The notes beneath the pieces are model-generated. The model saw only the letters and a list, made by a program, of their open reading frames with translations. It was not told the DNA's origin and made no database searches. 55,120 nt of DNA, taken from the IMG/VR virus record IMGVR_UViG_3300037560_000072, positions 1-55,120 of that record, one strand, 5' to 3'. Made by a program: the position numbers and the translations under genes. The stretch comes from a virus. Its lineage: Duplodnaviria; Caudoviricetes. Position 1 is the first letter of the stretch, and each line of letters opens with the position of its first letter. Shown in pieces: positions 40,900-53,969 of the stretch.

Positions 40900-40973
40900 T
40901 AAGGAGGGGAGGAATCGAACCTCCCAACCGCATCCACGGCTAGACTGCTGCTCTACCTTTGAGACATACTCCC
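40900..40973 (-). ncRNA. Degenerate tRNA-like element
   Basis: D-arm CTC-AAAGGTA-GAG; T-arm GGAGG-TTCGATT-CCTCC; imperfect acceptor and anticodon arms. Confidence 0.5.
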
Positions 40974-41872: not shown

Positions 41873-42217
41873 CTAGTAGCACGAGCAAGGATAAGTGTCA
41901 CAGCCCTTACAGATCGCACACCCACACTTCCCACGACACCCCTCACACCCATCTTCGGCGATGGTCTCACGATTGGCGTCACAATTGGGCCAGTATTCAC
42001 ACGACGGACAACCACACTTACCATCATCGTCCCCACAGCTACTACACTCATCACAAGCGACTAACTCATGATGCACCGTCCGCTGTGGGATAGTAACTTC
42101 CCGTTTCTCATAATCCCCATTAGACGCCATACACATAGCTTCATCTTCAGTGTCCGCTGTAATCGCATACCGCACATGAACCACCGATGTTTCGACAACT
42201 TCTGCTGTCCACTTCAT
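41873..42217 (-). CDS. Cys-rich hypothetical protein
   Basis: Many CxxC/CxC motifs; SD GGAGG. Confidence 0.5.
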   Translation of the reverse strand: MKWTAEVVETSVVHVRYAITADTEDEAMCMASNGDYEKREVTIPQRTVHHELVACDECSSCGDDDGKCGCPSCEYWPNCDANRETIAEDGCEGCRGKCGCAICKGCDTYPCSCY

Positions 42218-43226: not shown

Positions 43227-44299
43227 CTGCCCACCTAACTTTTTTTCACGCCCGATAATCCACAGGCCAATAACAAGACTAGGCTAGGAGAGTCTAATAA
43301 CCCACCCAGCCTAGTCTACACCCGATAACCTAGCCAGCCACGCCACTCAAGGCTATGAACAGGAAATTAGTGTCGCCCGTGTCGTGTACCAGCTTTCATT
43401 AGCTCATGTACATGCTGAGCTAACCTCAGTGCCGTCTCAGCAGCCTCTACACTCCTAAGAGACATGACTGCCTGAAACACAATGTGAAGACCAAACAGAC
43501 CAATAGCAATGCTACCTAGTACCAGCATTCTTATCTCCTTTACCTTGCTCCTCCAGTTCTCCCATCCTCCAATCCTCACGTCTCATTGCTACCATGATAG
43601 CTTCCCTCACAGTGCTGGAAGCATCCTCCCTGGTAGTCTCATGTAGCCTAAGCCCTCGACCTGTAGTTGAGTTCCTACAGATCCAACCCCTACCGGGCCA
43701 CGTATGTCTCTGGTTAGCATCCAACCAATCCAATAGTTCTGTATCCGTTAGCATTAGTCTTTCCACCACTCCCCAATTCCATCAATACCATCCACAACAG
43801 CCCTACTGATCTCTTGGGCTACCTTCACCTTAGCTTCAGCATTTATGGCTTCAGCCTTGCAGATAAAGTATCCCAGCGGAAGAACCATTGCAAGTATACA
43901 AGCAACAGCGACACTACCAATCCACATAAACTCTTGTTTCTCATTCATTTCTAATCCCCTTTCTTCTTGTAAGGATACCCATGTGGCAACTCCCCCTTAG
44001 TCCTCGCCAGACTGTCCTTCCAGCTATCATCCGGGAGAGTTGTCTTGTTCCTCCAATCTAGCATAATTAAAGCTACGAGCAGCAGTGCTAACACTAGAAC
44101 CAAGTACAGCCAAATCATTACTTGACCTCCTGATAGTCCTCTACAGTGAGGACCACGCTGTCTACATTGTCACACAAGCCATAGCCCATTTCCTCTTCTT
44201 CCTCGATTGCTGCGTCCTGTGCTTCCTGTTCACTCTTAAAGAAGAATGGTGTAGCACCACCGTCACCATTGTCTTGCACATGATACCATACCCTGATCT

Positions 44300-44725
44300 T
44301 CATTCCTCATCCTCCCTATCTTTGCTTTTCTCAATTGACTCAAACAAACCACGCATCCAAGGTGGACACTCTTTAGATGGATACACATTCAACAGTCCAT
44401 CCTTCCCTAGCACATCCCTACCACCAGATAGAAGAGCAAAGGTTTTGCATAGTATACTGATAACTGGGCACAAGGCATGTATGTCGTTATCCATCTGTCT
44501 AGCCAATCCAGCCGCCACCCTATCTACGAAATCATCAGTAACTCCTCCTTTGATAGCCATAGTAGTAGAGTAAATACTGCCCTTGAGCTGCAAGGTAGTA
44601 GCAATCTCGCTGAGGCCAAGCTCTACCTCTCCACCATCACTCACAGCCAAATCAGCAGTCATAACCCCAGCATCGTCCTCTGGACACCTCTGATAGTTAA
44701 GCTCCACACTTATTCCTCCCCACAT
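44300..44725 (-). CDS. Hypothetical protein, distal part of the Ubl operon
   Basis: 141-aa ORF. Confidence 0.5.
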   Translation of the reverse strand: MWGGISVELNYQRCPEDDAGVMTADLAVSDGGEVELGLSEIATTLQLKGSIYSTTMAIKGGVTDDFVDRVAAGLARQMDNDIHALCPVISILCKTFALLSGGRDVLGKDGLLNVYPSKECPPWMRGLFESIEKSKDREDEE

Positions 44726-44780
44726 TCAAGGGTACTTCTTCCAGCAGCGTTCCAAAGTGAGACAACAATTACAGTCTCCG

Positions 44781-46214
44781 TCATGTGAATATCCTCCCCG
44801 GCACCGCACACTCTCCCGGTTTAGAGGGAACAGGACCATTTGGAACATCTTTAGTGGCCTCCTCTGTATAGGTCACCTCTTCCCCACTATCGACTGCTTC
44901 CTCTTTGGCAGAAAGTAGTTGTCCACTTGAATCACAATCATTGATCTCTAGGTTATGTGAGCCGTCGTCTCGCTCCTCAAAAGAAGTTATTACAGAAAAG
45001 TGCAGGATAGGACTTGAGATACTGCCCAAAAACCGTACAGCAGGAACCTTTCTACTTTCCTGCAAAGATAAATCCTGCCTCTCGTGTAGCCCCAAAGGCA
45101 ACTCTGACTCTCCCAAAGTTTCTGCACATTCTATGGCTTTATTCAGCCACTCGTCTGGGGGATTAAGATCAGAAGGCCAGTATGACACCACACCTGGAAG
45201 GTCAAGGTTAAACCTATTAATCACTCCCGCTGTAATCTTGTCGCCTACAGTATCATACATAATATTACGTGGTAGACCAGTGCATGGCTCACTGGGAGGT
45301 CCGTTGAACATCCAATTTCTTTGTATGAAATACTGAGGAACTAGTGGTGGTATTCCTCGCTCCAAATTCTTACTTACTACTTCCAGTAATGCTTGGGGCA
45401 TAACAATATTGTAATACATCGGGCGAACTACTTCCAAATCCCACTTCCTATGCCCATCATTTCCGGATATATGACGTAGTCTACTCCAGTCAAAACGCTT
45501 GGTCGATGGAGATGTGAATCCAGGATAAGCCCTACCTGCCACCAGAAAAAGCATGGTCCTATAGTTCTCATCTCTTTCCAAAGTTACATCTTGCGTATAT
45601 GGACTGTCTCTATACAGTCCACGCATCATATCCTCAATAAAAGACGATAAGCTAGTTTTGCCAAGTAACCGCCTGAATTCGACTCCACTGGGAGTAGTAT
45701 CTTTAGGATGAAGTAGGGACGTAGCTCCCACAATCATTCTATCCACTCTAAATAGGCTATCTTTATGGTTACCTATAACCATACTGTTGGCTACCCGAGG
45801 TATCACTCCTCCCGGAAACTCCTTCTCTATAAGCTCACTTTGGCAGTTAATCCTAATTGGACAGTATCCGTACTGTACCTCATCTTCTGGGAATGATGGA
45901 GATAGTCTCAAGTGTGTACTTTTCCTACTACCTACGTTGATTATCCAACACCCTAATTCGTCACGCCAGCAGCTCCTCAAGTCGGGAACCCCGATCCACA
46001 TAGCCCCAAGAAGTGAATCCTTAGTTTCGGACCACGGACTACAACTTACCTTGTTTGATGTTATATCAGGGGGTCTTAGTTCATTCATAACCTTAGTAAC
46101 AACTCTACTTACTTGGTTCCCCAAACTTGGGTTTAACGCCGTAGTACTATTCCAATCCAAAGGACGGATGATTCTACTACTACTCATTACTTGCTTCCTC
46201 CAATCCTGATACAA
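44781..46214 (-). CDS. Unknown 477-aa protein coupled to the JAB gene (candidate E2, ligase or substrate)
   Basis: Overlaps the JAB stop; no confidently recognised domain. Confidence 0.6.
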   Translation of the reverse strand: MYQDWRKQVMSSSRIIRPLDWNSTTALNPSLGNQVSRVVTKVMNELRPPDITSNKVSCSPWSETKDSLLGAMWIGVPDLRSCWRDELGCWIINVGSRKSTHLRLSPSFPEDEVQYGYCPIRINCQSELIEKEFPGGVIPRVANSMVIGNHKDSLFRVDRMIVGATSLLHPKDTTPSGVEFRRLLGKTSLSSFIEDMMRGLYRDSPYTQDVTLERDENYRTMLFLVAGRAYPGFTSPSTKRFDWSRLRHISGNDGHRKWDLEVVRPMYYNIVMPQALLEVVSKNLERGIPPLVPQYFIQRNWMFNGPPSEPCTGLPRNIMYDTVGDKITAGVINRFNLDLPGVVSYWPSDLNPPDEWLNKAIECAETLGESELPLGLHERQDLSLQESRKVPAVRFLGSISSPILHFSVITSFEERDDGSHNLEINDCDSSGQLLSAKEEAVDSGEEVTYTEEATKDVPNGPVPSKPGECAVPGRIFT

Positions 46215-47251
46215 AGATTCTTAGCCTGGGGAGTTGGACATATATCTTTACACCACGACTCCAGACCAGCATACTGGGAACTCGTCATAATATACCAGTG
46301 GTTCCGATAATATACAAGACGAAGATTCTTCAGATGTTCAGGACAAATCTTGAGTGCTCCCAGTATATCCAAGGAATCCTCGACATAATCCGAATCGACA
46401 GTGTCTGCAATGTCTACAATAGTTTGGGCAACTGTAGTCTTAGTAGTGAGTCGGGTACGTTTGGATTTAGTCTTGAGTTTCTTGGTTGGCTCAGGAATCT
46501 TCAATAGTTCTTCAAGACTTCTGTTACCACTCCTAGAGAATACAACTGCTACCCTCTCAATATCGCCAATGCTTCCGTCCAGCAATTGAAACACTTTACC
46601 TGCAATGGCCCCATTGATTGTGTACGATCCATCCCGACCAAAGACTAAGTGAAGTCCAGACTTCTCTGGTTCAGCCCAATCATCAATATCGGTTTGGCTA
46701 GGACTGCATGGCTCTCCCGGATGAATATGTATTGTTCCAATCCATCGTGCCTTCTCTTGGAACTTTCCCATCTCCTCCGTAGTGTCTTTCCAAGTAACCC
46801 CACCAGGTGTACCTGTCTGTGGTGGTACGTGATATGTCCAGCCAGTTAGGTCCCTATTACGTCCAACCAACATAAGGACCTCTCTATTGTACTTGGAAAA
46901 GAACACGTCAAACAACCAAGCTAACTCGGACATGGGAGGAAAGTTAGGCCAGTCAATCTTGTCAACATAGACATTTGACTCATCTTCGTCCAGCTTAGCT
47001 GGAGCTAGACATTCAATAAGTCCAAACCTGTGCTCGTAGACCCTCCTATCATCTCCCATTACAAGCCTAGTAGTCGAAAGGTTCACCGTGTTCAAGTCAT
47101 CTAATCCAAGTAGGTCCTGACTCTTACCAGGCATAGTTGACTTAATAGCTGTAGTGGACACATGAGAAGACCGAGGCCATTCTGGATTCCACCCGGGATC
47201 TTCGTATCCATTCTCATCATCGTCGTTGAATAACCAGTCTAAGTCTATCAA
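46187..47251 (-). CDS. JAB/MPN+ metalloprotease (deubiquitinase-like)
   Basis: NREV (Glu), P.Q, IGTIHIHP...SQTDIDD = E...HxH-x6-SxxD. Confidence 0.85.
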   Translation of the reverse strand: MIDLDWLFNDDDENGYEDPGWNPEWPRSSHVSTTAIKSTMPGKSQDLLGLDDLNTVNLSTTRLVMGDDRRVYEHRFGLIECLAPAKLDEDESNVYVDKIDWPNFPPMSELAWLFDVFFSKYNREVLMLVGRNRDLTGWTYHVPPQTGTPGGVTWKDTTEEMGKFQEKARWIGTIHIHPGEPCSPSQTDIDDWAEPEKSGLHLVFGRDGSYTINGAIAGKVFQLLDGSIGDIERVAVVFSRSGNRSLEELLKIPEPTKKLKTKSKRTRLTTKTTVAQTIVDIADTVDSDYVEDSLDILGALKICPEHLKNLRLVYYRNHWYIMTSSQYAGLESWCKDICPTPQAKNLCIRIGGSK

Positions 47252-47964
47252 GAGACCACCACCTTCCTACACTTGGCTAGTGTGTTCCACATCCGGACTG
47301 AACCAATACCGTGTTCAGAAGGAACAGACCAGTAGAACTCCAGAACCTCATCTATTCTATCACACCGAGTTTCTTGTAACCGGAAAGCAATGTCCTCAAT
47401 ACACATACCCACTAAAACGCCAGTCAAAGCATTGGCTCTCACATCCTGGAGGTTGCACCTATTAGCCTGTAGACCGACCTGTCCTACGTCTGAATGGTGT
47501 TCTCTCCAGTCAAATATAGCCTCCCCCCCCATCCAAATGCCAGGATAGCACTGGCCATGCAGTCTTTCACAACCCGAGACAATCATAATACCGGGACTCG
47601 ACCTAGAAGCCAACCACTCAGCCGCATCCAATCTAGTCCAATCATTGTCCACATTCACAACAGCAATTACCGGTCGGCCCTCTGTTTCTCTACCTAGTAT
47701 CTCGTCCATAGGAGAGAAGGAGTCAACCACCTGCCAGGACTCTGCCTCGTTCAGGATTTGTGACGCCACACTCACCTTAGTACTCCCGGGTTGAAATCCA
47801 GGCCACTGACGTCCATAGTTCTCTGATTCAACTGTGTCTGGATCTATCAGTATGGCCTTAGTCTTACCATATCTCTCTCTCAGTACAGCCAGATAAGGAC
47901 TAGCTGCATAGAATGTTCCACCACACCCTATAAACACCCAAGTATATTCATCAAGAGTCCACAT
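47248..47964 (-). CDS. ThiF/MoeB/E1-like ubiquitin-activating enzyme
   Basis: FIGCGGT, IDPDTVESENYGRQ, K, VNVDN..TR; candidate catalytic Cys in NRCNLQDVRAN. Confidence 0.88.
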   Translation of the reverse strand: MWTLDEYTWVFIGCGGTFYAASPYLAVLRERYGKTKAILIDPDTVESENYGRQWPGFQPGSTKVSVASQILNEAESWQVVDSFSPMDEILGRETEGRPVIAVVNVDNDWTRLDAAEWLASRSSPGIMIVSGCERLHGQCYPGIWMGGEAIFDWREHHSDVGQVGLQANRCNLQDVRANALTGVLVGMCIEDIAFRLQETRCDRIDEVLEFYWSVPSEHGIGSVRMWNTLAKCRKVVVS

Positions 47965-48149
47965 TAGAACGGGTCCTCCTCAAGATCAGAAATACGCTCA
48001 CCAGGACTACACTCTATATCTTTTACCACCACTTCCCATACCTCACCTGGAATTTCATCCTGGCCCTGAAATTTCTCGGCCTCAAGAACGCTGACACGCC
48101 TCTCTAATTCTTTGACCCTCTCTAGGAGAGCTACAAACTTTCTTGACAT
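47964..48149 (-). CDS. Small coiled-coil/acidic protein (61 aa; start refined to MSRKF)
   Basis: SD AAGG; stop overlaps the E1 start. Confidence 0.5.
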   Translation of the reverse strand: MSRKFVALLERVKELERRVSVLEAEKFQGQDEIPGEVWEVVVKDIECSPGERISDLEEDPF

Positions 48150-48163
48150 TACTCTACCTTTCA

Positions 48164-48297
48164 AACCGGGAGAGGAAAGAACCAAGAGGGGGGAGGCGTG
48201 TCGCCGGATCACTACCACCACGGGACAAGATCATCAGGGGACTTGCCTCTATGTGGCGGGCAGGACTCGAACCTGCCTTTCCTCTCCTCTCCCAGTT
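48164..48297 (-). ncRNA. Circularly permuted tRNA-mimic RNA (YrlA/Y-RNA-like)
   Basis: 5' to 3' on the - strand: closing stem, T-arm GCAGG-TTCGAGT-CCTGC, acceptor-like stem CCGCCAC/GTGGTGG closed by a loop, TA, D-arm GTG-ATCCGGCGA-CAC, pyrimidine tract, closing stem. Confidence 0.65.
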
Positions 48298-48360
48298 CAT
48301 CCTCTCTCCTCAGCTAGTCTGTCTTGGTTCCCCGATGCACTTAATCTCTACCCGAACTGA

Positions 48361-48600
48361 TTAGGCCCCCTGCTTGCCGGACTTCGGAACTTGAGAAATA
48401 CGATCTCCCTCCTGGAGGGGAGTGGAGTCGGAAGCTGGAGTCCCATTCACGCGAGTACTGACAACTTCAAGACCACGCAGGTGGTTATCCTCAATCAGTG
48501 CTCGAATAGTTGAGCCCTCGGGAACCTGAGTGTCAACGTTCTCTCCGCCCTTCTCGATCCTCACACTAATCATCCCACTCTTGATGTCCTCAATGTACAT
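48361..48600 (-). CDS. Ubiquitin-like (beta-grasp, ThiS/MoaD/Ubl) protein
   Basis: V.EG.T...L...RVNG.PA...TPLQEGD.I..VPK.GKQGA; Gly is the penultimate residue. Confidence 0.85.
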   Translation of the reverse strand: MYIEDIKSGMISVRIEKGGENVDTQVPEGSTIRALIEDNHLRGLEVVSTRVNGTPASDSTPLQEGDRISQVPKSGKQGA

Positions 48601-48862
48601 TACCTTCTCCCATTTCTGCCACTGTGTGGCCGTGCTTCCCTAGTTGGATCATAGCGTGTATGTCCTTGACCAGGGAGTCTGGAAACTCCAGGTATACCAA
48701 GTAGATTGTACTTTGATGCCAGAAAGCCACATGGCATTGTCCAACACAGAGGGTACTTCCATCGGTATATACTGAACCATCCAGGCTTGCGTAGGATCGT
48801 CGAGCGAGGAACCATTCCACCGCTTTCCTTCGACTTTCCACAGTCTCCTTCGACCGGATCAT
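48590..48862 (-). CDS. Hypothetical protein, first gene of the Ubl operon
   Basis: SD GGAGG; overlaps the Ubl start. Confidence 0.55.
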   Translation of the reverse strand: MIRSKETVESRRKAVEWFLARRSYASLDGSVYTDGSTLCVGQCHVAFWHQSTIYLVYLEFPDSLVKDIHAMIQLGKHGHTVAEMGEGNVH

Positions 48863-48972
48863 AAGATGTCCCTCCGTGAACTGAACTCACAACTGCCTCC
48901 TGATAGGAACCAAGACTACTTCTTGCTGCCAGTTCTCCCTCAGTCGTGATGCAAAATTCGACGTTCATGGCG

Positions 48973-49002
48973 ATTCTATGCCACCCGGTCGCGTCAAGTC
49001 AA
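48973..49002 (-). promoter_or_regulatory. sigma70-type promoter of the Ubl operon
   Basis: TTGACT-N18-TAGAAT with upstream A-tracts. Confidence 0.6.
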
Positions 49003-49109
49003 CTTTTTTCTTAATTTTTTACGGCCGATAACTACTTAGATGTGTAGAACCGGGAGAGTTCCGCTGTGTCTAGTACCAAGAACTACCCGCAAGCGGTAAT
49101 TAACTTTGC

Positions 49110-49415
49110 TTACTTACTTAGCGTCTGAAGTGCATACTGAATAAATACCGGATTGGATTTGATAAACTCAGTCAGGGCCTGTCCAAGTATAAGTACCACC
49201 GCCTCCTCATCCTTGAACTCCGCTCCCACAAGCATAGCGTGCAGAGCCTCATGGAGTAGTAGCTCTATCTTTCGAGAGGCTGCTGTTCTCTTGTACACTC
49301 GGATGATATTGAAGTTGTGGTCTACCTCGGCTATATTACCCTTGCCAAGATCTTTACGGTTGACGTGCTTGATCCGGTACGTCTGTCCCTTAATATCAAG
49401 GGATCGTGGGATCAT
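49110..49415 (-). CDS. Small HExxH metallopeptidase-like protein
   Basis: LLLHEALHA...E motif. Confidence 0.65.
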   Translation of the reverse strand: MIPRSLDIKGQTYRIKHVNRKDLGKGNIAEVDHNFNIIRVYKRTAASRKIELLLHEALHAMLVGAEFKDEEAVVLILGQALTEFIKSNPVFIQYALQTLSK

Positions 49416-49424
49416 CCTCTCCTC

Positions 49425-49664
49425 CTATCTCTCTCGAAGAACTGCCTCCACTGCTGCCAGCCTCTGAGCCACCTCCGACAGGCCCTGATTCATGCCTTTG
49501 ATGTCCCCCCGAAGAAGCCTAAGATGTTCGATAGCAGTCACCTCAACATAGCTGGTCATCTCAGCCCGGGAGATAAGATCAGGAGCCATGGTCAACCAGA
49601 GGACCGTCAGGCCCACTAGTACGCCCGCTATAACCTTGGCAGCTACCTCTCCCGGTTTAGTCAT
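49425..49664 (-). CDS. Membrane protein with a TM helix and coiled coil (holin/spanin-like?)
   Basis: MTKPGE start with ATGA overlap; one hydrophobic helix. Confidence 0.45.
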   Translation of the reverse strand: MTKPGEVAAKVIAGVLVGLTVLWLTMAPDLISRAEMTSYVEVTAIEHLRLLRGDIKGMNQGLSEVAQRLAAVEAVLRER

Positions 49665-50524
49665 CTTGACACCGTCCGACCTACTAGAAATATAAGACGA
49701 TCCCATCTCCGCTTGGGAGTCCGCCCACCAGGAACCAAGTAAATGGATTGAATGTCCTCAGATGCTTGTGAAGCAGACCACAAGACCTTTTCTTGTGTAC
49801 CATCGAAGTTAGCAACCCGTAAGTCTATACTAGTGGCACCAACCCAGCGATTGAAGTACATCTTCTGCTTTTTGATGTCCAGAGTAATATAAACGAAGCC
49901 ATCAGTTGCACTGGTAATTAGTACTTCTGCGTTACCACCATCGAGATCAGCTCGTCTTACACTGGAAGTACCAGGCCAGTCAACCCAATACATCTTCTCC
50001 CTATCTGTGTCGATTTCAATACCGAATCCAGAAGGGGCGGACGCAACAACATCCGCGGTACCGGCACCCTCCATGGTAGCCTTGGAAATTTTGTCCGGAT
50101 TGGGTTTTTTATCAGTCCAGTACATTTCCCTATTAACTAAATCAAGACCCAGTCCACTGGCTCTAATACCAGTTACTAGGTCTTCACGCCCTGATCCATC
50201 CAAGTTAGCTCTTCCAATACGCTCATCGGCCGCTGAGGAGGAAGCATAGTACAGTTTGCCGTTTGGGACATCTAGTACAATGTCTCGGCATCCTGTTTCG
50301 CTAGTAATGAGTTGTTCTACTCCGGTGCCGTCTAGATTGCAGCGAGAAATGGCATCTACTGCTCCCCACTCACTGTAGTAGATTTTTCCTTCCCCCTTAT
50401 CTACAGTTATGGCTTCTGGAGTGTCCAGACCATCTAGAACTGTAACTTTCTTCTTACCATTGGTCATGCACCTGCGTATGGCACCCATGACCGTATCGGT
50501 CCAGTATATCTGTGCTACACCCAT
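49661..50524 (-). CDS. YWTD (LDL-receptor class B repeat) beta-propeller protein
   Basis: IYWTD, IYYSE, LYYAS, MYWTD, MYWVD and MYFN repeats, most followed by R.NLDG-like segments. Confidence 0.85.
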   Translation of the reverse strand: MGVAQIYWTDTVMGAIRRCMTNGKKKVTVLDGLDTPEAITVDKGEGKIYYSEWGAVDAISRCNLDGTGVEQLITSETGCRDIVLDVPNGKLYYASSSAADERIGRANLDGSGREDLVTGIRASGLGLDLVNREMYWTDKKPNPDKISKATMEGAGTADVVASAPSGFGIEIDTDREKMYWVDWPGTSSVRRADLDGGNAEVLITSATDGFVYITLDIKKQKMYFNRWVGATSIDLRVANFDGTQEKVLWSASQASEDIQSIYLVPGGRTPKRRWDRLIFLVGRTVSR

Positions 50525-50536
50525 AGCACACTCCTC

Positions 50537-50902
50537 CTATTCCCAGCCGACTACAGCAACTTTATCCAGATCGTCAGCACCATCAAGGGTTACGAAAGAT
50601 ACACTCAGGACAGACAAGCCGCTTCCGATACTAACGTCAATGGTCTCTCCATCAGCAAGAGTAAAGTGTCCCGGACCATCATCATCTGCATCATTGTCAA
50701 AGTCATTAGAAACCGTACCATTGGTTTCCGCATTGACTTTAACCCTAATGTCATTACCATTACCAGTACCATTCATTACAATACACGGACGTACCGGCGT
50801 ACCGAAGATAATGATTCTTGGATCGGTAAGACTATTGTCTGTACCATCAGCAGCCTGAGTTCCTTGAACTGGAAGTCCAGCCTTTACAGTGCCTCTACCC
50901 AT
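50537..50902 (-). CDS. Putative structural protein
   Basis: 121 aa, beta-rich, SD AGGAGGAG. Confidence 0.5.
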   Translation of the reverse strand: MGRGTVKAGLPVQGTQAADGTDNSLTDPRIIIFGTPVRPCIVMNGTGNGNDIRVKVNAETNGTVSNDFDNDADDDGPGHFTLADGETIDVSIGSGLSVLSVSFVTLDGADDLDKVAVVGWE

Positions 50903-50912
50903 GAGTCTCCTC

Positions 50913-51599
50913 CTACTTTAGGATTCGGGAAATCTTCTGTCCGTACACCGTCAGCGTGGCCGCGTCCGCAGCCCCATCCGCCTCGACACCAATGTAAGGC
51001 TTGAGGTTGACCGTATTACCCCTAAAGCTGCGAGAGAATACCTCACGTCCGTTTATGAACATGTGGCACACCTCGTCCTTATCAAACTTTACCTTTACAG
51101 TGTAAATCTCACCAGCAATGAGGATGTTGTCTGATACATGAGAGAGGTCGGTATCGTTTACGGAGACTTGTGCTACAATCGCTGCTGACGAAACATCGTC
51201 CTCATACCGAAAGTAGGTCTGGTCAGCATCAGTGGCTACCACGTCTGTATCAGTCAACTTGAGACCGAACCAGTAAATTGAGGAATCAATATCTCCAGCC
51301 TTGAAAGTGCATTCCCATTCAGTTTCGTCGTCTGTACCCCAAGTAACAGTCTCCCAAGGAGCAAATGTACCTCCTAATTGAGGTACAATGAAAATGCCCT
51401 CCCCATCAGTAGCATCCGTACTGTAAAGAGCCCCGCCATCAGTGGCAAATGCCACAGTGAGGGTAGAAGTACCTAGACCCTCAAAGAGTGGATCTACTGC
51501 AAAAGCATATCCAGCAGCATTCGCCGCAGTCAGGCCCTTCTCACCAGCAATCCACTCCATGGTAAGACGTCTTGCCTTGTAGTCAATTGACATACTCAT
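50913..51599 (-). CDS. Putative structural beta-sandwich protein, paralog A
   Basis: 228 aa; closely similar to 51610-52296. Confidence 0.6.
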   Translation of the reverse strand: MSMSIDYKARRLTMEWIAGEKGLTAANAAGYAFAVDPLFEGLGTSTLTVAFATDGGALYSTDATDGEGIFIVPQLGGTFAPWETVTWGTDDETEWECTFKAGDIDSSIYWFGLKLTDTDVVATDADQTYFRYEDDVSSAAIVAQVSVNDTDLSHVSDNILIAGEIYTVKVKFDKDEVCHMFINGREVFSRSFRGNTVNLKPYIGVEADGAADAATLTVYGQKISRILK

Positions 51600-51609
51600 T
51601 AGTTGTTCC

Positions 51610-52296
51610 TTACGCGATCAGCCGGGAAATCTTTTGACCATACACCGTCATAGTGCTTTCGGACCCACCAGCTCCATCAATGATTCCAATGTAGGGTTTC
51701 AAATCTACCGTGTTACCCACAAAGCTAACCTGACTAACCAGCTTACCATTCACAAACATGTTACATAGCTCGGCCGCGTCGAAGACTACTTTCAGGTGCA
51801 TGATCTGACCGACCGCAGCCAGAACACCAGTATCGACAGTGGTCAGAGAGGTATTAACCTCCACAAGGGACTGCCACTTGCCAGAGTTGATTCCATTCTC
51901 AAACCTAAAATACGCCTGATCGGCATCGGTACCAGAAACATTAGTATTAGTCAGTTTGAGGCCGCAGTACCCAATATCATCAGCAATAGTACCAACCTTC
52001 AACAGGCATTCCCATTCGGTCTCGTTGTCAGTCCCGAATGTTACATCATCCCAAATACCATGTTCGGCATCAAGGTGCGGAAGAATAATAACACCATCCG
52101 AGGCAGCACCATCCGTCGTCAGCAACACGCCGCCGTCAGCCGCGAATGTTACATCATCTGCCGTAGCATTTGTCCCTAGAATCTCGAACCAGGGGTCAGC
52201 CGCGAAGTTCTCGGTCGCAGCATTAAGAGCAGGAGTACCATGTTCACCCGCAACCCACTCCATAACCAGCCTATTACCTTGCAGTGAAAAACCCAT
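51610..52296 (-). CDS. Putative structural beta-sandwich protein, paralog B
   Basis: 228 aa; shares MEW.AGE, GTD.ETEWEC, GLKLT, LKPYIG and TVYGQKISR with paralog A. Confidence 0.6.
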   Translation of the reverse strand: MGFSLQGNRLVMEWVAGEHGTPALNAATENFAADPWFEILGTNATADDVTFAADGGVLLTTDGAASDGVIILPHLDAEHGIWDDVTFGTDNETEWECLLKVGTIADDIGYCGLKLTNTNVSGTDADQAYFRFENGINSGKWQSLVEVNTSLTTVDTGVLAAVGQIMHLKVVFDAAELCNMFVNGKLVSQVSFVGNTVDLKPYIGIIDGAGGSESTMTVYGQKISRLIA

Positions 52297-52306
52297 CTTT
52301 GTCTCC

Positions 52307-52831
52307 CTACATTACCCGCAAAAGGGTAAGTTCCACGAATAGCTTCATTGTATTCGTATCGTTCGTTAGAGGAACCCGTGAAACCACCTTCACAGACAGG
52401 CTCCCATTAGCAGAAACCTCTTCGCCACCAGTCGTATTAAGAGGTACATTCCGCACCTCATTCATCGTCATGCCCTTCAACTGGGCAGCACACACAACCG
52501 AAGACCCGCTCAGCACGCTTAAACTCAGTCTACCGTTCGGACTCCGTACAACACCGTTCGCGTCGTCCATCAAAGTTGCTTCGCACTTCAGTACTCGAAA
52601 CTTCCACGGAGCATCTGAACTAAACAGCGATACAGTTTGACTGTCATCGGCCGTAGCCGTAAAATAAGCCACCATCTTGACGGACTGACCAAACGCCGTA
52701 TTTCCATCTGCATTCGTTAGTCCGCCGGGAGAGTGTAGCATACTCTCGGGGTCCTGGGTTACAACGCCCAGTACCCCATCAGCAGTCAGGTTGACCTTAA
52801 CACCAGTTCTACCAACTTCGTTCAATGACAT
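52307..52831 (-). CDS. Putative capsid decoration-like protein
   Basis: 174 aa; shares PWKFRVL with 53373-53969. Confidence 0.5.
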   Translation of the reverse strand: MSLNEVGRTGVKVNLTADGVLGVVTQDPESMLHSPGGLTNADGNTAFGQSVKMVAYFTATADDSQTVSLFSSDAPWKFRVLKCEATLMDDANGVVRSPNGRLSLSVLSGSSVVCAAQLKGMTMNEVRNVPLNTTGGEEVSANGSLSVKVVSRVPLTNDTNTMKLFVELTLLRVM

Positions 52832-53391
52832 TACAGGTTCTCCGTAATGGTTCTCGGCACGACTACATACTCAACCATGACCAGCATTTTTCCAGCTCCG
52901 TCCCCGGCCACAGCAGTCTCACTTCCAGCAGTAGTGAGGGCCACCTCAACACCATAGCCTGCCGGTACAGAGTAAGTAGTCCTATCGTCAGCGGCTGCTC
53001 TGTTATCCCAGTTAGTCGTAAGTGACCCACCAGCCTGCCACACCCCAATAGCCGCATTGTCCGTAGACGTAATCGTATCCAAAGACGCGGGAGTAGCACC
53101 TTTCGTTCTCACCGTAATCACAGCATCAGTATTGGCGGCTAAGATAGCTTCAGTATTGATCGCTCCTAGACTCAGAATGACAATACCAGTTCCCACAGCC
53201 TCGTCTTCGTGAATCAACGTGTGGTACCTGTCCAAGACCTGAGTGTCATTTTCATCCAGGTCAATTTCAAGCATTGCCATCTTGACCGGTACTGACATTC
53301 CCCTATTAGGAACCGCCTCTGAGTTCGACCTAGCCTTCAACGAAGAATGAATAGTAAAGTCAGTCCCTGCCATTAGTTTACCCTCATGCAA
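52831..53391 (-). CDS. Putative capsid decoration-like protein
   Basis: 186 aa, beta-rich, G...V.VEY C-terminus. Confidence 0.5.
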   Translation of the reverse strand: MHEGKLMAGTDFTIHSSLKARSNSEAVPNRGMSVPVKMAMLEIDLDENDTQVLDRYHTLIHEDEAVGTGIVILSLGAINTEAILAANTDAVITVRTKGATPASLDTITSTDNAAIGVWQAGGSLTTNWDNRAAADDRTTYSVPAGYGVEVALTTAGSETAVAGDGAGKMLVMVEYVVVPRTITENL

Positions 53392-53969
53392 AGCATCTTG
53401 ACGGATACCTCTTCGCTCTCTGTAGCCGCTCCACCATCATTCTTGACCTGTACCACGACCTCCTGACCTGCCGTCACGATAGCATAAGCCTCGATCAGCT
53501 GGCTGGTATCCTCTACACGTCCCAGCTTAATCAGATCGGAAGTATCCTGATCCAGAGTCACCTCATCCGTCATAGCATTGGCCGTATCCAAGGCCCCATC
53601 AGAGTCAAGAGTATAGTGGAAAATTTGCAGTGTGTGTGTCTCAACCTGGTCGCTCAGGAGGTGAGCCCAAGTATCCAGCACCCTAAACTTCCACGGAGAC
53701 CCACTCGTACCAAACACGCGGGCATTGACCGTTCGATCCGTGCCCCCATCATCACCTGCACTGATTCCCATGTGTATAATAAAGGGGATCCCAAATTCCA
53801 CGTTGCTGTCTTCGGTATCGACCGCCCCAACCGCCGTCGGAATAACCGTCAAGGTCGTTCCGTCTCGCTCCTGGGTCATTGAGTCGGGAGGTTGCATCAA
53901 CAGGCCCGTCTGACGCTCACACGTCTCTCGGACGTTCGTTCCAGTCAATCCACTCTCTTCTAACGCCAT
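53373..53969 (-). CDS. Putative capsid decoration-like protein
   Basis: 198 aa; first gene after the leader; SD GAGGA. Confidence 0.5.
   Translation of the reverse strand: MALEESGLTGTNVRETCERQTGLLMQPPDSMTQERDGTTLTVIPTAVGAVDTEDSNVEFGIPFIIHMGISAGDDGGTDRTVNARVFGTSGSPWKFRVLDTWAHLLSDQVETHTLQIFHYTLDSDGALDTANAMTDEVTLDQDTSDLIKLGRVEDTSQLIEAYAIVTAGQEVVVQVKNDGGAATESEEVSVKMLCMRVN

Follow-up and report, generated by a model that had tools for sequence, protein, structure and literature searches.

A putative operon for activating and removing a ubiquitin-like protein in a complete tailed-phage genome

The window analysed here is the whole of the virus record IMGVR_UViG_3300037560_000072, a 55,120 bp genome with direct terminal repeats that is rated 100% complete. 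On its minus strand lies an operon of seven genes, about 4.6 kb in length, encoding a ubiquitin-like protein (Ubl), a putative ThiF-type activating enzyme (E1), a JAB/JAMM metalloprotease and four further proteins which we refer to by their lengths as p90, p61, p477 and p141 (Table 1). An initial annotation, made from the letters of the DNA without database searches, had listed the same seven open reading frames (ORFs), and all were recovered on the minus strand where it had placed them. As every ORF is conserved at the protein level in related contigs, we regard them as real genes. Gene ends overlap by 11, 1, 4 and 1 nucleotides (nt), the last of these being the overlap of the likelier p477 start codon with the JAB stop. 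The initial annotation described the genes as coupled, which agrees with these overlaps, but the coupling is broken twice, by the spacer between Ubl and the 61-aa gene and by a 55-nt gap before the 141-aa gene.

Table 1 Features of the putative Ubl operon, in order of transcription; positions are those of the window
Feature	Positions	Strand	Description	Basis or remark
Promoter-like site	48973..49002	-	Sigma-70 type (TTGACT-18-TAGAAT) with upstream A-tract	10/12 consensus positions
p90	48590..48862	-	90 aa, first gene of the unit	No family match
Ubl	48361..48600	-	79 aa, ThiS/MoaD/SAMP2-like beta-grasp, ends KSGKQG-A	Pfam ThiS above cut-off
Spacer	48150..48360	-	211 nt	T-arm-like hairpin and one copy of the 9-mer CTCTCCCGG
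p61	47964..48149	-	61 aa, small acidic protein, N-terminal helix motif FxALLERVxELERRV	Conserved in relatives
E1	47248..47964	-	238 aa, minimal ThiF-type adenylating enzyme	Family profile, invariant residues
JAB	46187..47251	-	354 aa, JAB/JAMM metalloprotease with N- and C-terminal extensions	JAMM motif in 9/9
p477	44781..46214	-	477 aa (probably 468 aa from ATG 46187)	One invariant Cys
p141	44300..44725	-	141 aa, small helical protein	Near-invariant R13, C14, D81, H83, C86, P87

The single promoter proposed ahead of the operon held up well, being the best of 12 promoter-like sites in the region, with both hexamers (-35 and -10) and the upstream A-tract kept in all four aligned relatives. It is also one of six TTGAC-N16-19-TANAAT sites in the genome, where 0.29 would be expected and none of 100 shuffles reached six. 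Given this excess, the phage likely has a bacterial host whose sigma-70 polymerase reads its genome. Among the sequencing runs containing the region there is no RNA run, the sole one listed being a marine-sediment DNA metagenome from which the genome may derive. The viral origin claimed for the DNA is well founded: besides the complete record and its terminal repeats, PHROG matches include a DNA polymerase, an exonuclease, a Sak4-like annealing protein, a primase/helicase and the large terminase (TerL), and these matches identify it as a tailed phage. The majority of its proteins have no match at all, and the main structural block (9944–35088) lies away from the operon.

The gene order of the operon recurs across 15 distinct metagenomic loci, which were collected from scans of viral and metagenome contigs and compared by tblastn with the window's proteins. 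E1 is followed by JAB in every locus that extends past E1 (12/12), Ubl lies upstream of E1 wherever at least 600 nt of upstream sequence is available (11/11), and JAB is followed by p477 in all seven loci reaching that far. Four of the seven loci that extend beyond p477 then carry p141, and p90 precedes Ubl in nine of the 11 loci with enough upstream sequence. Co-conservation of these genes in related phages, which the initial annotation had looked for, is thus evident from their shared order. One locus, L011, forms part of a 522-kb contig and contains only Ubl, E1, JAB and p477 from the operon. As just these four genes are held there in a different setting, we take Ubl–E1–JAB–p477 to be a core that has moved between genome contexts. 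Its neighbours in L011 encode protein-modifying enzymes, namely PARP catalytic plus WGR, histidine-phosphatase, PP2C and kinase-like genes. From its sequence the contig could represent a very large phage; PHROG matches were found in five of the 16 ORFs at L011 1–14645.

Homologues of E1 (n = 31) were detected at 51–60% identity, three of them on contigs of 54.7–54.8 kb. Relative to G001, the closest complete relative, TerL is 88% and DNA polymerase 81% identical, and identities within the operon are 41% for p477, 56% for JAB, 58% for E1, 67% for Ubl, 77% for p141 and 79% for p90. This divergence (41–79%) is in line with that of other fast-evolving accessory genes. No relative was found in 50,697 GenBank phage records, either by DNA search or by tblastn of E1, JAB and TerL, and scans of 185,579 prokaryote genomes (one per species) with alignment patterns of E1 and JAB returned no homologue. 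When E1 and p477 were each used alone as a pattern to scan viral contigs, again no relative emerged, and a word-based homologue search returned none for Ubl and just two for p477, a family detectable only in a handful of sequences.

Judging from its profile matches, the Ubl is a ThiS/MoaD-type beta-grasp protein, as the initial annotation had proposed for the 79-aa ORF. It scores 27.4 bits against Pfam ThiS, above the cut-off of 22.5, and ThiS is matched at E ≤ 0.01 by seven of its 11 relatives. In PDB the family profile best matches SAMP2 (E 2.7e-4), with MoaD at 0.016, and the L011 Ubl matches Pfam SAMP2 under its cut-off (E 1.3e-4). Gly78 is kept in 10 of the 11 aligned sequences. The tails of 12 Ubls vary around this residue: in six the conserved Gly is the last residue (...KQG or ...QLG), five continue for one to three residues (A in the window's copy, E twice, K once and SDN once) and one, from L017, ends ...GGRLA. 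In the window the tail before the final Ala reads KQG and not GG.

E1 is, by its conserved residues, a ThiF-type adenylating enzyme with a predicted complete nucleotide-binding and Mg site. Across all 18 family members G13-C-G15-G16, D41, R52-Q53, K63, N104/D106, C132 and C170 are invariant, and R111 is near-invariant (at least 90% of the 18 sequences). The intact adenylation motif reported for this protein is thereby confirmed, comprising the Gly loop, D41, R52-Q53, K63 and N104/D106; of these we take the Gly loop, D41, R52-Q53, K63 and D106 to serve the nucleotide and Mg sites. The motif columns align with the corresponding UBA5 motifs in the HMMER alignment. Pfam ThiF is matched at E ≤ 0.01 by 12 of the 18 family members (best 5.2e-9), and the family profile recovers UBA5 (3.8e-4), MoeB (7.3e-4) and MccB (3.4e-3) from PDB, where the single sequence gave chance-level matches only. 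MoeB and ThiF are included among its nearest NCBIfam and PDB neighbours. Scores of the operon proteins against the NCBIfam PRTRC, MoeB, ThiF and Cap3 models all fall far under their cut-offs, and the E1-E2 models of PADLOC are matched at E 0.0029 only. The protein is minimal in architecture, with no rhodanese domain, CxxC pairs or C-terminal ubiquitin-fold domain.

The JAB protein retains the protease site described for it, as E124, H175-x-H177 and S185-x-x-D188 are invariant in nine of nine sequences. Prok-JAB is matched at E ≤ 0.01 by seven of the nine family members (best 2.1e-5). The family profile matches AMSH-like Sst2 in PDB (E 0.004), with whose JAMM motif that of JAB aligns, and also AfJAMM and Rpn11. 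In defence libraries it scores best with PADLOC's JAB models (E 1.8e-4), alongside a faint NCBIfam Cap3 match (E 0.033, 14.4 bits vs a cut-off of 200). The initial annotation assigned this enzyme the task of cutting the Ubl tail at QG|A. The Ala after Gly78 fits such a cut, but half of the 12 Ubls already end at Gly, so trimming is not the conserved role. Removal of extra C-terminal residues by JABs is known for ThiS-type sulfur carriers. JAB and its intact JAMM site persist in all four testable loci with a Gly-ending Ubl (L002, L004, L006 and L011), hence its conserved role must go past precursor trimming. Removal of the Ubl from its attachment partner is the obvious candidate for that role.

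The partner proteins have fewer landmarks. Neither p477 nor p141 matched anything in Pfam, PHROGs, PADLOC or NCBIfam. A single Cys of p477 is invariant in nine of nine sequences (C302 in the 468-aa numbering), set in the context PP...Y...W-x-F-N-G...P-C-x-G with N295 present in eight of the nine. This may resemble the E2 core YPxxPP...HPN...C, a likeness confirmed by no tool. C302 sits in a low-confidence loop of the AlphaFold model, which has a mean predicted local distance difference test (pLDDT) of 70.4, and ESM Atlas gave no lead (best 0.79). Five of the nine aligned family members (five of the eight relatives) carry a CxxC-rich C-terminal tail that the window's copy does not have; these tails give marginal matches to IBR or B-box (E 0.09–0.23) and to FYVE, B-box or ZZ at E of at least 0.0036. 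Its single invariant Cys and the zinc-finger tail seen in five of nine members mark p477 as the candidate transfer or targeting factor. A bolder proposal is that it founds a new class of Ubl-transfer enzyme, with its catalytic Cys in PP...FNG...PC on a non-UBC fold and often fused to a target-picking cross-brace zinc finger, in a phage family that would encode a full cascade for tagging host proteins during infection; this we consider doubtful, though worth stating.

For p141, 20 representative relatives share the near-invariant residues R13-C14 and D81-x-H83-x-x-C86-P87, and its model (pLDDT 84.9) consists of helices and two hairpins. Two apparent relatives, P0046 and P0054, were low-complexity repeat proteins and were removed from the alignment; an hhalign search for a p141 relative in L012 found none (probability 0.4%). 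Neither p90 nor p61 has a family match in the same four libraries. p90 contains no invariant Cys or His and gave no usable ESM Atlas result. An 85-aa reading of the 61-aa gene from GTG 48221 was rejected, since in L002 and L004 the conserved Met is preceded by stops.

On the most likely reading of these data, the phage has a module of its own, self-contained and driven by ATP, which activates a Ubl, most likely tags proteins with it and removes it again. JAB would take off Ala79 and expose Gly78, which E1 would then adenylate. The Ubl would pass to lysines of host or phage proteins, either directly or via a thioester on E1 and/or on Cys302 of p477; p477 would be an E2/E3-like factor of an unconventional kind, serving in transfer or targeting. 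JAB would also cleave Ubl conjugates, making the mark reversible, with p90, p61 and p141 in accessory or regulatory roles. The operon would be read by the host's sigma-70 RNA polymerase, and the phage might benefit through host takeover, counter-defence or virion maturation. The initial annotation had likewise proposed that the phage brings its own protein-tagging system. That Ubl, E1 and JAB genes travel together stands; the conjugation step is our inference, with no E2 evident. For the specific claim that the phage runs an E2-less Ubl conjugation system, or one with a novel E2, we see the chances as about even.

Several results weigh against this reading. The window's own E1 and JAB both fall short of family thresholds, at 20.8 bits vs 28.1 for Pfam ThiF and 20.3 bits vs 25 for Prok-JAB. 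When the C-terminal half of E1 (residues 97–238) was used as a profile, no solved E1 aligned, so that the two invariant cysteines, C132 and C170, are no more than candidates for the catalytic Cys suggested in the initial annotation. No E2 family was matched by the operon proteins in Pfam or PADLOC at E ≤ 0.1, nor by the whole genome in a six-frame Prok-E2_B scan, and a UQ_con scan run without a positive control was also negative. The p477 model matched no solved or viral structure, a result that bears chiefly on the part after residue 125; nothing of known fold matched the p141 model, and the matches listed for the two models included no UBC chain. Two further points concern sulfur chemistry: JAB proteases act in sulfur-carrier pathways too, according to section 12 of Iyer 2006, and the phage could use host sulfur donors in place of its own.

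On that alternative, the adenylated Ubl would be converted to a thiocarboxylate via a host persulfide donor, p477 and/or p141 would make a thio-modified small molecule, nucleotide or base, and JAB would mature the carrier or free the adduct. The Ubl has its best score with ThiS and counts MoaD besides SAMP2 among its PDB neighbours, E1 has MoeB and ThiF among its close NCBIfam and PDB neighbours, and the invariant Cys of p477 and the C/D/H/C set of p141, which could bind metal, would suit such chemistry. Moreover, clusters of ThiS, E1 and JAB with no thiamine or molybdenum cofactor genes are presented as sulfur-transfer systems in section 12 of Iyer 2006; the clusters described there have a rhodanese-bearing E1 or SirA, however, whereas here E1 is a 238-aa protein with no rhodanese. 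Six-frame scans of the 55-kb genome with Rhodanese, Aminotran_5, ATP_bind_3 (PP-loop), MoaE, ThiG and PALP found none of them, SirA not being among the models scanned, and positive controls for these scans were matched in 11–14 of 14 genomes. The initial annotation's observation that thiamine, molybdopterin and cysteine-synthesis genes are missing can thus be extended to rhodanese, cysteine-desulfurase and PP-loop thiolase genes. The KQG tail also speaks against a sulfur carrier, since tails other than GG are found in Ubls that are conjugated but are not known from sulfur carriers, as does the company of protein-modifying enzymes that the core keeps in L011. We therefore regard sulfur transfer as unlikely, while giving it real weight.

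Three other explanations make different use of the same parts. Host immunity based on Ubls might be undone or swamped, whether Bil tagging of virions or Cap2/Cap3 control of the cyclic oligonucleotide-based anti-phage signalling system (CBASS), with JAB as deconjugase and the phage Ubl and E1 as competitors or decoys. The PADLOC and faint Cap3 matches of JAB would fit, as would the faster divergence of operon proteins than core genes, and host Ubl systems that target phages do exist, as the Hor 2023 preprint reports. A decoy role leaves the active E1, p477 and the strict four-gene linkage unexplained, however, the defence-library scores are far under family cut-offs, and our full-text literature search yielded no phage-encoded example; we think this explanation rather improbable. 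The activated C-terminus of the Ubl could instead be joined to a nucleotide, lipid or cell-wall amine, in an MccB- or Atg8-like manner with p477 as transferase. The MccB match of the E1 profile points in that direction, and so do the failure to detect an E2 and the p477 model with no fold match. Against it, what E1 would activate is a folded protein of the ThiS-like beta-grasp type and not a short peptide, and p477 has no recognised transferase domain, leaving such an acceptor very improbable. Hardly any weight can be given to a role in virion assembly resembling that of the lambda proteins I and K, in which the Ubl would serve as a chaperone domain that JAB processes and would not be conjugated. 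The tail Ubl and JAB that lambdoid and T1-like phages carry form the only phage association of the two that we found described (Iyer 2006, section 13), and variable genes lie directly upstream of our operon (49661–53969). Yet the lambda/T1 systems have no E1 in that account and a Ubl to which a C-terminal domain is fused, whereas here an E1 with intact active-site motifs is invariably linked and the structural block is elsewhere.

Other features of the genome deserve mention. The spacer between Ubl and the 61-aa gene contains a perfect T-arm-like hairpin near 48273 (5-bp stem, 7-nt TTCGAGT loop), which is also found in the relatives L008 and L006, and the minus strand has similar GGTTCGA(G/T)TCC words near 40921 and 40488. 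The hairpin was rejected as a tRNA, as ARAGORN calls none, and no Rfam family was matched. The minimum free energy z-score of the spacer is -0.28, and its length differs among relatives, sometimes with an extra gene. Such a gene lies between Ubl and E1 in L016 (6113–6709) and L015 (2–394); it has a conserved C-terminus, W..(H/N)P.WP..LEL, and in L016 overlaps the Ubl gene in another frame.

The 9-mer CTCTCCCGG is present in 37 copies in the genome (16 plus, 21 minus) against 0.55 expected, a count reached in none of 100 shuffles. Copies occur within genes and between them, for example at 49050–49058(-), 48166–48174(-), 46712–46720(+), 44811–44819(+) and 44031–44039(-). Their flanks are not conserved, though TT comes next in 30–31 of the 37. 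In the related genome G001, C comes after each of the 29 copies, mostly with TT next. The 9-mer might be recognised in nicking, modification or packaging, and it may resemble the nick-site consensus of phiKMV-like phages.

Directly upstream of the operon promoter, a 101-aa protein (49110–49415, minus strand) has a HEALH (HExxH-like) motif and matches phrog_1233 (E 1.3e-10). Its position is kept in about eight loci, including L002, L004, L008, L012, L013, L016 and L017, the last of which has no p90. Farther along, 49661–50524 (minus strand) encodes a 287-aa YWTD/LDL-receptor class B repeat protein (Pfam Ldl_recept_b 4.9e-17, DUF5050), probably a beta-propeller, with no counterpart in G001. Two adjacent 228-aa paralogues (50913–51599 and 51610–52296, minus strand) both map to one G001 gene at 26–35% identity and belong to the genome's most variable genes. 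On the other side of the operon, a 114-aa protein (41873–42217, minus strand) has a very Cys-rich C-terminal half in which CxxC and CxC pairs are numerous; Pfam gave no match for it, and G001 has no counterpart.

Our analysis of the operon can be set beside known systems by analogy. In archaeal sampylation (SAMP–UbaA–HvJAMM1) and in the Thermus TtuB–TtuC system, as here, one MoeB/ThiF-type E1 accompanies a Ubl of the ThiS/MoaD type and a JAMM protease, and neither E2 nor E3 is evident; these two appear to be the closest in working principle. Those systems are cellular, however, with an E1 that also serves sulfur transfer and Ubls with GG tails in place of KQG, whereas the module described here is viral, the C-terminal half of its E1 is unlike those of solved E1s, and p477, p141 and p90 have no counterparts.

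In gene content the closest analogue appears to be Bil (type 6d of Iyer 2006), in which, according to section 14 of that paper, the Ubl stands alone and has a conserved C-terminal Gly, E1 and JAB are separate proteins, JAB is extended at its N terminus and a further, helical protein is present. By published accounts, Bil differs in needing an E2, of which none was detected here, and in being a host defence that tags phage tails, not a module owned by the phage. Type II CBASS (Cap2/Cap3) and Bub (types 6b and 6e), by the same accounts, also combine E1-type adenylation with JAB-type removal in phage–host conflict. Cap2 is, however, an E1–E2 fusion that conjugates the CD-NTase itself, and Bub is described with oxyesters, an E2, a peptidase–E1 fusion and, in addition, a serine protease. 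The PRTRC cassette places a ThiF-family protein on a mobile element, and PRTRC ThiF is the best NCBIfam match of E1, but the score is 17.3 bits vs a cut-off of 144.75 and no other PRTRC family matched the operon proteins. The kinship with Bil and PRTRC suggested in the initial annotation is therefore one of analogy only.

Among sulfur-carrier clusters, those for pyridine-2,6-dithiocarboxylic acid (PDTC)/quinolobactin and cysteine synthase, in rows 4a–4e of Iyer 2006, likewise combine a ThiS-like protein, E1 and standalone JAB and have no genes for thiamine or molybdenum cofactor; as described there, they differ in having a rhodanese E1 or SirA and AMP-ligase, cysteine synthase or sulfate-assimilation genes. 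The lambda/T1 tail proteins I (Ubl) and K (JAB plus NlpC/P60) offer a phage Ubl with a conserved Gly adjoining a JAB, but in the account of Iyer 2006 they come with no E1, the Ubl is fused, the JAB is joined to NlpC/P60 and the genes sit within a tail gene cluster. A full-text literature search, which did not cover supplementary tables, found no description of a phage operon with Ubl, E1 and JAB; an Asgard-virus preprint reports three ThiF/E1-like genes in Nidhogg viruses. What appears to be new, on present sequence evidence, is a phage-borne, E2-less Ubl–E1–JAB module together with three partner families of unknown fold.

Until now, accounts of bacterial Ubl conjugation have presented it as a weapon of the host against phages, in Bil, in type II CBASS and probably in Bub. 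A conserved phage operon with Ubl, E1 and JAB would show that bacterial viruses use this chemistry too, in parallel to the eukaryotic viruses that manipulate ubiquitin. Genetic linkage ties p477, p141 and p90 to Ubl activation. A new kind of conjugating or targeting factor may be among them, and if p477 does prove to be a transfer enzyme of a new class, the operon would mirror, on the viral side, the Ubl defences that bacteria have in Bil and CBASS.

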